A program made the position numbers and the translations under genes. Shown here piece after piece: positions 18,418 to 19,919 of a stretch of 64,000 bases of DNA; positions within the stretch are counted from its first letter, which is position 1; each line of letters opens with the position of its first letter. Below the pieces are notes generated by a model. The model was not told where the DNA came from. It did no database searches and worked only from the letters and a program-made list of their open reading frames with translations. This DNA comes from an uncultured archaeon. GTDB lineage: Archaea; Asgardarchaeota; Thorarchaeia; Thorarchaeales; CAZPUN01. The DNA lies in the NCBI GenBank assembly GCA_964589775.1, contig CAZPUN010000023.1:2135-66134 (forward strand), given 5' to 3'.

Positions 18418-19919
18418 ACACTAGTTGATCCTGCTAGACCTGACTGCTATCGGCTTGGGGCTAAGACATGCAAGTCGTACGTGGACGCATGGGTCCGCGT
18501 GGCGAACGGCTCCGTAACACGTCGTTAACATACCCTCGGGAGGTGGATAACCCCGGGAAACTGGGGCTAATACACCATAGAGGTTATGTTCTGGAAATGA
18601 TATAACCTCCAAATGGAAGCTACGCCCATGTGTAGTTTTCCGCCCGAGGATTGGACGGCGCCCGATCATGCTTGAAAGTGGGGTAACTGCCCACTTTGGC
18701 TATGACCGGTAGGGGCAATGTGAGTTGGGGCCTCGAGAATGGCACTGAGACAAGGGCCATAGGCCTACGGGCTGCAGCAGTTACGAAACCTCCACAATGC
18801 GGGAAACCGTGATGGGGCCAAGCCGAGTGTCAGCCGATAAGGTTGACTGTTCGGCAAGCTTAAGGAGCTGCCGAAGTAAGGGGAGGGCAAGGCTGGTGCC
18901 AGCCGCCGCGGTAAAACCAGCTCCTCGAGTGGTCAGGATGTTTACTGGGCCTAAAGCATCCGTAGCCGGCCCGGTGTTTCCCTGGTTAAATCCAACCGCT
19001 TAACGGTTGGGCTGCTGGGGATACTACCGTGGCTTGGGAGCGGAAGAGGTCAGCGGTACGTCTAGGGGAGGGGTGAAATCCTGTGATCCTAGACGGACCA
19101 CCAGTGGCGAAGGCGGCTGACTGGGACGCGTCCGACGGTGAGGGATGAAAGCTAGGGGAGCGAATCGGATTAGATACCCGAGTAGTCCTAGCCGTAAACG
19201 ATGCGCATTAGGTGTTGCGTTTGCCTCGAGCAACCGCAGTGCCGGAGCGAAGGCGTTAAATGCGCCGCCTGGGAAGTACGGCCGCAAGGCTGAAACTTAA
19301 AGGAATTGGCGGGGGAGCACCACAAGGGGTGGAGCTTGCGGTTTAATTGGATTCAACGCCCGGAACCTCACCAGGGGAGACAGCTGAATGAAGGCCAGGC
19401 TGATGACCTTGCCTGACTAGCTGAGAGGTGTTGCATGGCCGTCGCCAGTTCTTGCCGTGAGGTGTCGTGTTAAGTCACGTAACGAACGAGACCCCTGCCG
19501 TTAGTTGCCAGCGAGGAGGTTTCTCCGATGGGCACACTAACGGGACCGCCGCCGATAAGGCGTGAGGAAGGAAGGGGCAACGGCAGGTCAGTATGACCCG
19601 AATCCCTTGGGCCACACGCGAGCTACAAAGGGTAGGACAGAGGGCTGCAACTCCGAAAGGAGAAGCAAATCCCTAAACCTACTCGTAGTTGGGATTGTGG
19701 GCTGCAACTCGTCCACATGAACCTGGAATCCCTAGTATCCGCGTGTCATCAGCGCGCGGAGAATACTGTCCCTGCTCCTTGCACACACCGCCCGTCGCTC
19801 CACGAGAGCTTGCTCTGTCTGAAGGGTGTCCCGTGGGGGCATCCTGAAGATGGGGTAGGCAATCGGGGAGAAGTCGTAACAAGGTATCCGTTGCGGAAGC
19901 AGCGGATGGATCACCTCCT
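18418..19919 (+). rRNA. rrs: 16S (SSU) ribosomal RNA, archaeal, not linked to a 23S gene
   Basis: 5' ..CTAGTTGATCCTGCTAGA.., internal GTGCCAGCCGCCGCGGTAA and AGGAATTGGCGGGGGAGCAC, 3' end GGATCACCTCCT. Length about 1.5 kb. Confidence 0.9.

Follow-up and report, generated by a model that had tools for sequence, protein, structure and literature searches.

A lone 16S rRNA gene with a compensated 5'-terminal helix and a conserved structured leader in a sparsely sampled Asgard archaeon

Does a 16S rRNA gene in which the near-universal archaeal 5' end has been rewritten set its organism apart, or does it document a trait held in common with relatives? We addressed this question for a 64-kb stretch of archaeal DNA (hereafter, the window), in which a first-pass annotation made from the sequence had noted a 16S rRNA gene with an unusual 5'-terminal helix, a long leader and no adjoining 23S rRNA gene. 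The region very probably represents a monocistronic 16S rRNA transcription unit of an uncultivated, sparsely sampled Asgard archaeon, equipped with a processing stem that would be cut by the tRNA-splicing endonuclease EndA and with a most likely inherited variant of helix h1. Coordinates of all features are collected in Table 1.

Table 1 Features of the 16S rRNA locus and of two protein-coding genes in the 64-kb window
Feature	Coordinates	Strand	Remarks
Promoter-like BRE/TATA motif GAAAGGTTTTTATT	17955..17968	+	Unique in the 64-kb window
5' part of the leader (5' ETS), lineage-specific	17996..18130	+	93-100% conserved with L073/L074/L075
Conserved structured leader domain	18131..18285	+	Homologous to Thor-type 5' ETS (alignments A3, A6)
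5' arm of the 16S processing stem	18286..18320	+	Outer helix 18286-18301
Leader element AGUAAACAUCCUG	18360..18372	+	Perfect complement of 16S nt 517-529 (18934-18946)
Hairpin just upstream of the predicted mature 5' end	18380..18415	+	GCUGCACG 18380-18387 / CGUGCAGC 18408-18415
16S (SSU) rRNA gene	18418..19919	+	1502 nt, without insertions; RF01959
Helix h1, CUAGU/GCUAG variant	18421..18437	+	Loop UGAUCCU unchanged
3' trailer with 3' arm of the processing stem	19920..19996	+	Stem pairing, fold
Pair of T5 runs immediately past the processing stem	20002..20013	+	Likely archaeal oligo-T terminator; GC falls to 26%
AstE/AspA-family protein (succinylglutamate desuccinylase/aspartoacylase)	20149..21078	+	Pfam PF24827; next gene after 16S
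tRNA-splicing endonuclease EndA, 198 aa	40938..41534	-	N- and C-terminal domains; PF01974 2.6e-29, PF02778 9.4e-17

A complete, unlinked 16S rRNA gene with a compensated helix h1

An Rfam scan matched the archaeal SSU rRNA model RF01959 to the locus with 1425 bits (gathering score 50), spanning the whole model (positions 1-1478) without truncation, and the boundaries of this match agree exactly with the gene coordinates proposed by the first-pass annotation. Its 3' end, read directly from the sequence, is GAUCACCUCCU, as expected of archaeal SSU rRNA. The locus is a genuine, complete archaeal 16S rRNA gene. Scanning 17000-20600 at a relaxed threshold revealed no further RNA family in leader or trailer; a vertebrate lncRNA model that appeared at 28 bits, with a gathering score of 50, was discarded as noise.

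Helix h1, as read from the sequence, consists of the pairs C18421-G18437, U18422-A18436, A18423-U18435, G18424-C18434 and U18425.G18433. Relative to the RF01959 consensus CcGgu/gcCgG, two pairs are altered on both sides, while all five are kept and none is marked as non-canonical in the cmscan alignment, which bears out the earlier proposal of a compensatory CUAG/CUAG for CCGG/CCGG change. Two G-C pairs have given way to U-A and A-U, with pairing retained and the functionally important loop UGAUCCU unaltered. Neither of the canonical sequences CCGGTTGATCC and GATCCTGCCGG occurs anywhere in the 64-kb window. The 5' helix of eukaryotic 18S rRNA, CUGG...CCAG, resembles the window helix in its second pair (U-A) but differs in the third, which is G-C in 18S rRNA and A-U here. 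We dismissed the idea that the U-A pair is eukaryote-like, as archaeal reads from outside Asgard, in OTUs labelled Crenarchaeota and Euryarchaeota, also carry CUGG/CCAG (PMC6998087, Table 2), so that the resemblance to 18S rRNA carries no demonstrated phylogenetic meaning.

In silico, an Arch21F-type primer showed six mismatches to the window, two of them at the third and fourth bases from its 3' end, in line with the mismatch predicted earlier. Clone libraries and full-length amplicons initiated at the extreme 5' end (Arch21F, A8F, A20F, Arch4F, SSU1ArF) would miss this lineage, as they do Thorarchaeota. The suggestion that amplicon surveys could overlook it therefore holds for old 5'-terminal primers and not for 515F-Y/806R and Arch519F/Arch915R, which, along with 926R and 1391R, have no mismatches to the window 16S. 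Current V4 and V4-V5 primers would detect the lineage, and for surveys the message is a modest one that was known before. No match to a lineage-specific 37-mer, CCTGACTGCTATCGGCTTGGGGNTAAGACATGCAAGT, was present in JGI metagenome contigs; this absence shows that the rarity of the lineage in the data is not a primer effect.

Over the 64 kb, which extend 18.4 kb before and 44 kb beyond the 16S gene, neither an Rfam match to LSU rRNA nor any of five 23S signature motifs was present, and the next gene encodes a protein, confirming that 16S and 23S genes are unlinked here. The only tRNA in the window is an intron-containing tRNA-Ala(CGC), located 17 kb from the 16S gene on the opposite strand. The AstE/AspA gene also follows 16S in two related assemblies, L073 and L074, and in L073 no 23S or spacer tRNA adjoins the 16S gene over the 7.8 kb covered downstream. 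Unlinked rRNA genes were reportedly treated by Brewer et al. in 2020, and this organisation was first described in Thermoplasma. Among Asgard archaea it is described as the prevalent state, with Odin as the linked exception (PMC8997704; Juttner and Ferreira-Cerca 2022). Our own scan of loci (Thor-type unlinked, Odin linked) agrees with this published pattern, and the window likewise has a lone 16S gene with no tRNA-Ala or 23S downstream.

Lineage placement and distribution of the helix variant

The window 16S gene is 98.7% identical to that of L073 and 75.8-78.2% identical to Thor-type and Odin sequences. The neighboring leucyl-tRNA synthetase (LeuRS) is 86% identical to its L073 counterpart, and its best hits past two close relatives are all from Asgard archaea, at ~52-57% identity. 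Synteny of LeuRS and 16S did not extend to Thor-type loci as judged by tblastn. On the basis of a neighbor-joining tree of 18 sequences and of leader homology, the window appears to belong to a deep, poorly sampled Asgard lineage, separate from Thor-type archaea and at best sister to the Thor-type clade. For the related runs and assemblies (SRR8542060, SRR32938001, JBMXMN, JBMXJU, GCA_053940065 and GCA_053985755), we found no paper.

A published point of comparison is the 16S 5' end of 'Type A' Thorarchaeota, with primer 21AF (CTCTAGTTGATCCTGCTAGA; PMC6998087, BMC Microbiol 2020). Type A shares with the window the same h1 (CUAG...CUAG), the same loop and consequence for Arch21F and the same following motif GGCTTGGGGNTAAGACATGCAAGT; its 16S gene is likewise unlinked, with a homologous leader and the same promoter motif. 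At the Arch21F site, the window reads CACTAGTTGATCCTGCTAGA against the Type A pattern C==TA===========TA==, so that the four helix substitutions and the first-base C coincide, whereas position 2 is A instead of T. The two differ in several further respects. Identity of the 16S genes is only 75.8-77.6% and that of LeuRS ~52-57%, the Type A signature GGRCACTGCTATCGGCTT (primer 26AF) is absent and replaced by CCTGACTGCTATCGGCTT, and the window leader is ~120 nt longer; the low 16S identity and the replaced signature argue for a lineage separate from Type A. Because positions 2-3 and 21-26 also differ (ACA-CUAG...CUAG-ACCUGA in the window versus ACU-CUAG...CUAG-AGGACA in Type A), h1 has lost two additional closing pairs, and no match to the Thor primer 26AF is expected.

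For information about the distribution of the variant, GTDB species genomes were searched with the 18-mer CTAGTTGATCCTGCTAGA, which was present at ~60 true 16S 5' ends (~48 Thor-type, 3 Odin and 8 DPANN). Eleven bacterial matches, in Bacteroidota and others, lay in conserved protein-coding context and were dismissed as chance matches. An unbiased sample of 24 Thor-type metagenome 16S genes, picked by the motif downstream of h1 regardless of the helix itself, contained CUAG/CUAG in 23 cases and CGUG/CACG in one (L079), with the canonical helix in 0/24. These comparisons of helix states cover Thor-type, Odin and DPANN sequences. Both the variant and the failure of Arch21F in Thorarchaeota were published in 2020 (PMC6998087). 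The first-pass annotation had implied a special departure from the universal end; this found no support, since CUAG/CUAG is the norm in Thor-type Asgard and also occurs in Odinarchaeia and some DPANN. It is an ordinary compensatory variant and a clade-level signature common to Thor-type Asgard and Odinarchaeia, most likely inherited and not peculiar to this genome.

Leader, processing stem and putative transcription unit

GC content rises from 28% in the intergenic DNA (17748-17954) to 47% at 17996-18417 and 57.5% in the 16S gene, then falls to 47% in the trailer and 26% after 19997. The GC-richer leader of ~420 nt that had been noted downstream of a TATA-like box is therefore real (47% versus 28%). 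The box belongs to the promoter-like motif of Table 1, which in the form GGAAAG[C/G]TTTTTATT also heads Thor-type leaders, and conservation with L073 starts abruptly ~20 nt upstream of it. Transcription would start ~25 nt past the motif, near 17993-17998. The lineage-specific 5' part of the leader has no counterpart among Thor-type leaders; its GC content is 43%, versus 28% in the adjacent intergenic DNA, and a long hairpin domain is predicted, for which two sequences provide only one covarying pair.

The following domain shares the blocks GATGATGG..TGAATTCCA, GATGCGGAC and GAGATCTAAGA with Thor-type 5' ETS. Leader helices are 94.1% paired, with 24 pairs changed on both sides versus 5-8 in slid registers, a result reached by 0/500 shuffles. 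The hairpin next to the 16S gene carries the motif CCUUGC (18396-18401), which as CCTTGC shows little or no variation among 22 leaders, and the equivalent Thor-type hairpin (helix 6) covaries. Taken as a series, the elements of this homologous 5' ETS are the promoter motif, a closing helix, a GAUGCGGAC stem-loop, the processing stem and the CCUUGC hairpin. The long processed leader proposed earlier is supported by the unique promoter-like motif, the covarying stem and the conservation of the structured leader in relatives.

Leader and trailer pair into a stem whose 16-bp outer and 6-7-bp inner helices flank a central helix of 4-5 bp, set off from the outer one by a bulge and from the inner one by an internal loop. 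Its outer helix is a perfect 16-nt inverted repeat (18286-18301 and 19975-19990). On the 5' arm, this is followed by a bulge UUGA (18302-18305), a central helix AGGG(U) (18306-18310) and an inner helix (18314-18320), and the 3' arm supplies the inner helix (19962-19968) and the central ACCCU (19970-19974). The fold of the joined flanks reached z = -9.4. Covariation was assessed by hand-anchored segments and a pair count, which replaced a whole-flank RNAduplex approach that gave over-extended duplexes. Across ten distinct sequences, the outer helix is 93% paired, with 7/12 pairs changed on both sides (0/500 shuffles reach this value); the closing A-U pair of the window is U.G in L073. Processing stems are reported to degenerate in organisms with unlinked genes (PMC8997704), whereas the outer stem of the window is long, perfect and covarying, with only the bulge-helix-bulge core being non-canonical.

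In archaea, the pre-rRNA processing stem is cut at a bulge-helix-bulge by EndA and ligated by RtcB to a circular pre-16S (PMC7038931, PMC10351888, PMC12918454), and for Asgard archaea, too, there are reports of circular 16S intermediates (PMC12918454). The window shares with this pathway the inverted repeats of leader and trailer around 16S, bulges near the stem base and an encoded EndA. The canonical motif, with two 3-nt bulges on opposite strands 4 bp apart, was found neither by folding nor in manual registers. Instead, the minimum-energy core has the 4-nt bulge, a helix of 4-5 bp and an asymmetric loop (3x1 in the fold, 5x3 in an alternative register), so that the modelled stem core is of a relaxed bulge-helix-loop form only. 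With this deviation, cleavage by EndA is not guaranteed; by analogy to the established archaeal pathway (PMC12918454), the organism's own EndA presumably cuts the stem, releasing and probably circularizing the pre-16S.

Downstream, the two T5 runs likely act as terminator, with an equivalent ACCCTTTTCATTTTT immediately following the 3' arm in Thor-type loci. The unique motif common to Thor loci, the T5 runs and the GC boundaries are consistent with a promoter and a terminator of the gene's own. A transcript initiated ~25 nt after the TATA-like motif would comprise a structured 5' ETS of ~420 nt, 16S rRNA and a trailer of ~77 nt, ending at the T-runs.

Alternative readings and significance

The shared helix could also be a product of convergence with Thor-type, Odin and DPANN. 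At least eight DPANN genomes (Woese/Nanoarchaeota-labelled) carry it at a 16S identity of only 67-70%, and its presence in several DPANN lineages indicates that CUAG/CUAG can arise independently; single-pair intermediates (CUGG/CCAG and CCAG/CUGG) and the double variant of L079 further suggest a helix that changes readily. An independent origin is nevertheless rather unlikely, though worth keeping in mind, since the window also has the Thor-type clade's unusual downstream motif, a homologous leader in which promoter motif and sequence blocks recur, and a sister position to that clade in the neighbor-joining tree, a combination for which joint inheritance is the more parsimonious explanation. 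Another alternative is an assembly artefact. Metagenomic rRNA genes are often misassembled and misbinned, a caveat also raised in PMC8997704, and one Logan contig (L072) breaks inside 16S; a foreign gene misjoined into the contig would make the flanks uninformative about the organism. Such an artefact is extremely improbable. The order LeuRS, leader, 16S, AstE/AspA recurs in the window, in two NCBI assemblies (L073, on a 320-kb contig, and L074) and in two Logan runs, with the independent assemblies L072-L075 agreeing in the LeuRS/16S/AstE-AspA arrangement and in h1; moreover, divergence of the flanks keeps pace with that of the proteins (LeuRS 86%, 16S 98.7%), and the GC boundaries coincide with a coherent unit of promoter, leader, stem and terminator.

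Two further readings concern the 13-nt leader element. With a computed hairpin energy of -4.0 kcal/mol, h1 is markedly weaker than the canonical sequence, for which the same 5-bp structure gives -7.9, and it is without the two extra closing pairs found in Thor-type sequences; a weak helix might need a leader chaperone in cis, such that variant helix and lineage-specific leader elements would together reflect altered small-subunit assembly. The perfect complementarity fits this idea, as a leader-16S match of at least 13 nt arises in 0.95% of leader shuffles and the element is kept in L073. However, neither site differs between the window and L073, so that covariation is uninformative, and a single 13-mer found after inspection (p about 0.01) carries little weight. 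Thor-type loci with the same helix have no pairing counterpart at the homologous leader position, which uncouples the two features and led us to reject the pairing as a general feature, and helix identity varies freely where pairing is kept. Altered assembly is accordingly very unlikely. In a broader version, CUAG/CUAG and the structured 5' ETS would constitute an undescribed pre-rRNA architecture uniting this deep lineage with Thorarchaeia, plus a 13-nt antisense chaperone pairing transiently with the 3' strand of h3 and the 560-region junction; we consider this improbable. If true, the element would serve assembly as a chaperone encoded in the precursor itself, comparable in function to the leader-16S pairing of bacteria or to the U3/5'-ETS interactions of eukaryotes.

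We therefore return to the monocistronic unit with an inherited helix as the preferred reading. Related Asgard archaea already provide precedents for the helix, the unlinked genes and the long processed leader, making this locus a new example of a known pattern: the h1 variant and its Arch21F mismatch have been known since 2020 and unlinked Asgard rRNA genes since 2020-2022. New are a deep Asgard lineage, at most 78% identical in 16S to the Thor-type and Odin sequences compared, and its leader, homologous to that of Thor-type archaea, with covariation-supported helices and processing stem. In this lineage and in Thor-type Asgard archaea, the 16S leader is thus a conserved structured RNA, with a well-kept stem despite unlinked genes. 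Leader and stem offer researchers of ribosome biogenesis concrete, testable elements in Asgard archaea, whose rRNA operon organisation has figured in arguments on eukaryogenesis.

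The 16S rRNA gene and its terminal helix

A covariance-model scan with RF01959 recovered a complete archaeal small-subunit rRNA gene with exactly the boundaries proposed in the first-pass annotation. Neither a large-subunit rRNA match nor any of five 23S signature motifs was found in the 64 kb and the next gene is protein coding, upholding the earlier claim that 16S is unlinked from 23S. The only tRNA gene lies 17 kb away, outside any rRNA operon. GC content steps from 28% in intergenic DNA to 47% from ~17996 and 57.5% in 16S, returning to 47% in the trailer and 26% past 19997. 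All factual elements of the annotation (16S, helix change, missing 23S, protein-coding neighbor and GC step) were borne out.

Features of the 16S locus and other genes of the window
Feature	Coordinates	Strand	Remarks
tRNA-Ala(CGC)	1419-1515	-	sole tRNA; ~23-nt intron in anticodon arm
Complex-I/Mrp-Mbh-like cluster	2153-12908	+	NuoB/C/D/H/I-like genes, four antiporter-like subunits
Leucyl-tRNA synthetase (LeuRS)	14847-17747		directly before 16S
Promoter-like motif GAAAGGTTTTTATT	17955-17968	+	unique in window
Leader, lineage-specific 5′ part	17996-18130		~120 extra nt
Leader, promoter-distal part	18131-18417		~290 nt, alignable with Thor type
Inverted repeat flanking 16S	18286-18301 / 19975-19990		perfect, 16 nt
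Leader-16S complementarity	18360-18372 / 18934-18946		13 nt, perfect; 16S 517-529
Leader AGGAGC	18403-18408		second predicted duplex segment, with 16S GCUCCU
Archaeal SSU rRNA	18418-19919	+	RF01959, 1425 bits, model 1-1478, complete
340-region primer site GCCTACGGGCTGCAGCAGTTACGAAA	18763-18788		Arch349F, 340F
Two T5 runs	20002-20006, 20009-20013		directly after stem 3′ arm
AstE/AspA-family protein	20149-21078		directly after 16S
Complex-I/Mrp-Mbh-like cluster	26094-28787	+	second NuoB/C/H-like set
EndA (tRNA-splicing endonuclease)	40938-41534	-	198 aa, both domains
RsmB/F (NSUN-like) rRNA m5C methyltransferase	45804-46793	+	same contig as EndA
Complex-I/Mrp-Mbh-like cluster	55388-61308	+	large antiporter-like ORFs, judged by ORF sizes only

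Among loci with enough sequence downstream of 16S, 23S followed after ~164 nt in Odinarchaeia (2/2) and in none of eight Thorarchaeota-type (Thor-type) loci, whose sequence reaches 1.3-4.5 kb beyond 16S. This reproduces the published Asgard picture, in which unlinked genes prevail (Loki, Thor, Heimdall, Wukong, Njord), with linkage in Odin LCB_4 as the exception (PMC8997704, citing Brewer et al. 2020); the window represents one further unlinked lineage.

The 16S 5′ end reads ACACUAGUUGAUCCUGCUAGACC, and canonical CCGGTTGATCC and GATCCTGCCGG are absent from the entire 64-kb window. The first helix (h1) comprises C18421-G18437, U18422-A18436, A18423-U18435, G18424-C18434 and U18425.G18433, closing a loop (UGAUCCU) identical to the consensus. 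Relative to the model consensus CcGgu/gcCgG, two G-C pairs are replaced by U-A and A-U; both strands are altered and pairing is kept, confirming the compensatory change from CCGG/CCGG to CUAG/CUAG that had been annotated. The window helix has an energy of -4.0 kcal/mol, compared with -7.9 for the canonical sequence in the identical 5-bp structure, -9.5 in its own 7-bp fold and -5.9 for the eukaryote-like CUGG/CCAG form, and is without the two extra closing pairs kept by Thor-type sequences; no observation ties this weakness to altered function. CTAG occurs 114 times in the window where 214 would be expected (ratio 0.53), although h1 itself holds two copies; for CCGG the ratio is 1.11, showing no depletion.

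Unlike several Thor-type 16S genes, that of the window has no insertions. Those in L043 (4569-6699), L048 (4412-6689), L005 and L055, ~600-900 nt long after gene position ~830-950, cause the Rfam match to cover 2.1-2.3 kb or break in two and are probably rRNA introns. In Thorarchaeota SMTZ1-45 (LRSL01000047.1; L011/L077), the 16S 5′ end occurs in tandem, CTAGTTGATCCTGCTAGAGGGCACAACT then CTAGTTGATCCTGCTAGAGGGCACTGC..., with copies 28 nt apart; the duplication may be genuine or may have arisen in assembly.

Distribution of the CUAG/CUAG helix and primer coverage

A search of GTDB for CTAGTTGATCCTGCTAGA, each species represented by one genome, was conditioned on the variant and returned 71 loci, ~60 of them true 16S 5′ ends. 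About 48 belong to one sequence type, labeled mostly Thorarchaeota and also Hermodarchaeota, Promethearchaeota or 'uncultured archaeon'; the remaining 16S ends comprise three Odinarchaeia, eight DPANN (Woese/Nanoarchaeota labels) and one other archaeon. Eleven bacterial matches were rejected as chance identities in conserved protein-coding context. Those in Bacteroidota (Flavobacteriia, Cytophagia; L015, L017, L036, L037, L051, L052, L063, L065, L069) share the apparently conserved coding context ..TGGGATGTN CTAGTTGATCCTGCTAGA AAAAT.., a chance identity with an rRNA 5′ end that could mislead probe or primer design.

For an unbiased test, 24 Thor-type metagenome 16S genes were fetched by CTGCTATCGGCTTGGGGNTAAGACATGCAAGT, a motif downstream of h1. 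CUAG/CUAG was present in 23 and canonical CCGG/CCGG in none of the 24, while L079 (FWPU01004879.1) carries a third compensatory form, CGUGU...ACACG, with a loop-adjacent change (GAUCCUAC). In this clade, CUAG/CUAG is therefore a nearly fixed signature, and h1 covaries freely. Compared with other Thor-type loci, L079 also has two large insertions in its leader.

The variant is already published: 'Type A' rRNA reads with the Arch21F site C==TA===========TA== were assigned to Thorarchaeota, and primer 21AF (CTCTAGTTGATCCTGCTAGA) was designed; according to the authors, primers had previously amplified no nearly full-length Thor 16S (PMC6998087; BMC Microbiol 2020). The same study tabulates, for other archaea, intermediates with one pair changed (CUGG/CCAG and CCAG/CUGG). 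Ordinary compensatory evolution via G.U or single-pair intermediates, all found in nature, is the simplest account of the change. Eukaryotic 18S h1 likewise has the U-A pair (CUGG/CCAG). This pair resembles that of the window but also occurs in non-Asgard archaeal reads (PMC6998087), and the resemblance has no demonstrated meaning. The locus belongs to known kinds: an archaeal 16S gene, unlinked organization, a Thor-type h1 variant and a processing-stem precursor. The first-pass interpretation stands for the locus features themselves and not for a special departure from universal sequence.

Matched in silico to the window 16S, Arch21F has six mismatches (two at the third and fourth bases from the 3′ end), A8F four (one at the 3′ terminal base), A20F five, and Arch4F and SSU1ArF three each; in the 340 region, Arch349F has three and 340F two. 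Since 515F-Y, 806R (Apprill), Arch519F, Arch915R, 926R, 1391R and SSU520R match without mismatch, the blind spot is restricted to 5′-terminal primers and the two 340-region primers. The predicted Arch21F-type mismatch is real; the suggestion that amplicon surveys could miss the lineage is borne out for such primers only.

Lineage of the source organism

Database matches to the window LeuRS comprise one identical entry and one 86% relative before falling to ~52-57% identity, with source-named matches labeled Lokiarchaeota, Thorarchaeota, Hodarchaeota, Hermodarchaeota or Promethearchaeota. The 86% relative occurs on a 320-kb contig (L073) and in a second assembly (L074), both with the window's gene order (Na/sulfate symporter, LeuRS, 16S, AstE/AspA, AF_0155-like, TFB); its 16S is 98.7% identical to that of the window, with h1 identical in form. 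Parts of the arrangement recur in two Logan assemblies (L072, L075). Because these assemblies recover the arrangement in whole or in part, a chimeric assembly of the window locus is very unlikely.

Identity of the window 16S to full-length Thor-type and Odin 16S is 75.8-78.2%. A neighbor-joining tree, a weak method with limited taxa, grouped the window and L073 as a sister lineage of the Thor-type clade, to the exclusion of Odin, and the unusual GGCTTGGGGNTAAGACATGCAAGT motif is common to window and Thor type. A lineage-specific 37-mer had no match in JGI metagenome contigs, and no mention of the run and assembly accessions was found in published papers. From these comparisons, we conclude that the source represents a deep Asgard lineage for which few samples exist; it is a relative of Thorarchaeia, as far as that class is sampled here, but not one of its members. 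Among its other genes are three complex-I/Mrp-Mbh-like clusters, where a weak NiFe-hydrogenase match of the NuoD-like protein suggests a group-4 hydrogenase-related complex.

The 16S precursor and its leader

Conservation between the window and L073 begins abruptly ~20 nt upstream of GAAAGGTTTTTATT, the preceding 200 nt of intergenic DNA being diverged, and Thor-type leaders are headed by the same motif, GGAAAG[C/G]TTTTTATT, ~340 nt before their 16S. We infer that GAAAGGTTTTTATT is a BRE/TATA promoter with transcription starting near 17993-17998, which would yield the ~420-nt leader estimated in the first-pass annotation.

The joined 16S flanks fold (z = -9.4) into three successive helices of 16, 5 and 7 bp; a 4-nt bulge (UUGA) lies between the first two and a 3x1 internal loop between the last two. 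In L073 the closing A-U pair reads U.G instead, altered on both sides. Ten distinct sequences, drawn from Thor-type loci and the window lineage, show 93% pairing over the outer 12 bp and seven pairs altered on both sides (matched by 0/500 shuffles); slid registers give 29-50% pairing. The stem core has a relaxed bulge-helix-loop form instead of the canonical 3-4-3 bulge-helix-bulge. EndA, the enzyme acting on such stems, is encoded in the window, as is an rRNA m5C methyltransferase, and Asgard archaea are reported to form circular 16S intermediates (PMC12918454). The T5 runs, with an equivalent T-rich tract at the matching place in Thor-type loci, are consistent with a monocistronic unit closed by an oligo-T terminator of archaeal type.

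Leader and 16S may also pair directly. The 13-nt complementarity targets the 3′ strand of helix h3 and the following junction (model structure line), and matches of at least 13 nt arise in 0.95% of leader shuffles (p ~0.01). It is kept in L073, where both sides are identical to the window, and has no equivalent in Thor-type loci, making it a lineage-specific lead with a putative function. In many Thor-type loci (such as L005, L006, L013, L020, L043 and L047), the leader's last 8 nt, GAUCAACU, reverse-complement 16S nt 6-13 (AGUUGAUC) exactly, so that the precursor could form a hairpin competing with h1; other Thor-type loci have GGACCAACU there, and the window (GCGAACA) is without this feature.

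The promoter-distal leader of the window aligns with Thor-type leaders (L001-L058; alignments A3, A6), sharing the blocks GATGATGG..TGAWTTCCA, GATGCGGAC, TCTAAGAWANGCTCA, GTACTTC and CCTTGC. Pairing in the consensus helices reaches 94.1%, and 24 pairs are altered on both sides versus 5-8 in slid registers (matched by 0/500 shuffles); the helices include a long-range closing helix, a stem-loop immediately 5′ to the processing stem, and a hairpin before the mature end. Given these shared blocks and covariation-supported helices, the leader is a conserved, structured 5′ external transcribed spacer (5′ ETS) common to both despite ~23% 16S divergence; open-access literature text yielded no description of Asgard 5′ ETS homology. 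The added value of the locus is modest and twofold: a deep lineage within Asgard, and an Asgard 5′ ETS that is structured and conserved.
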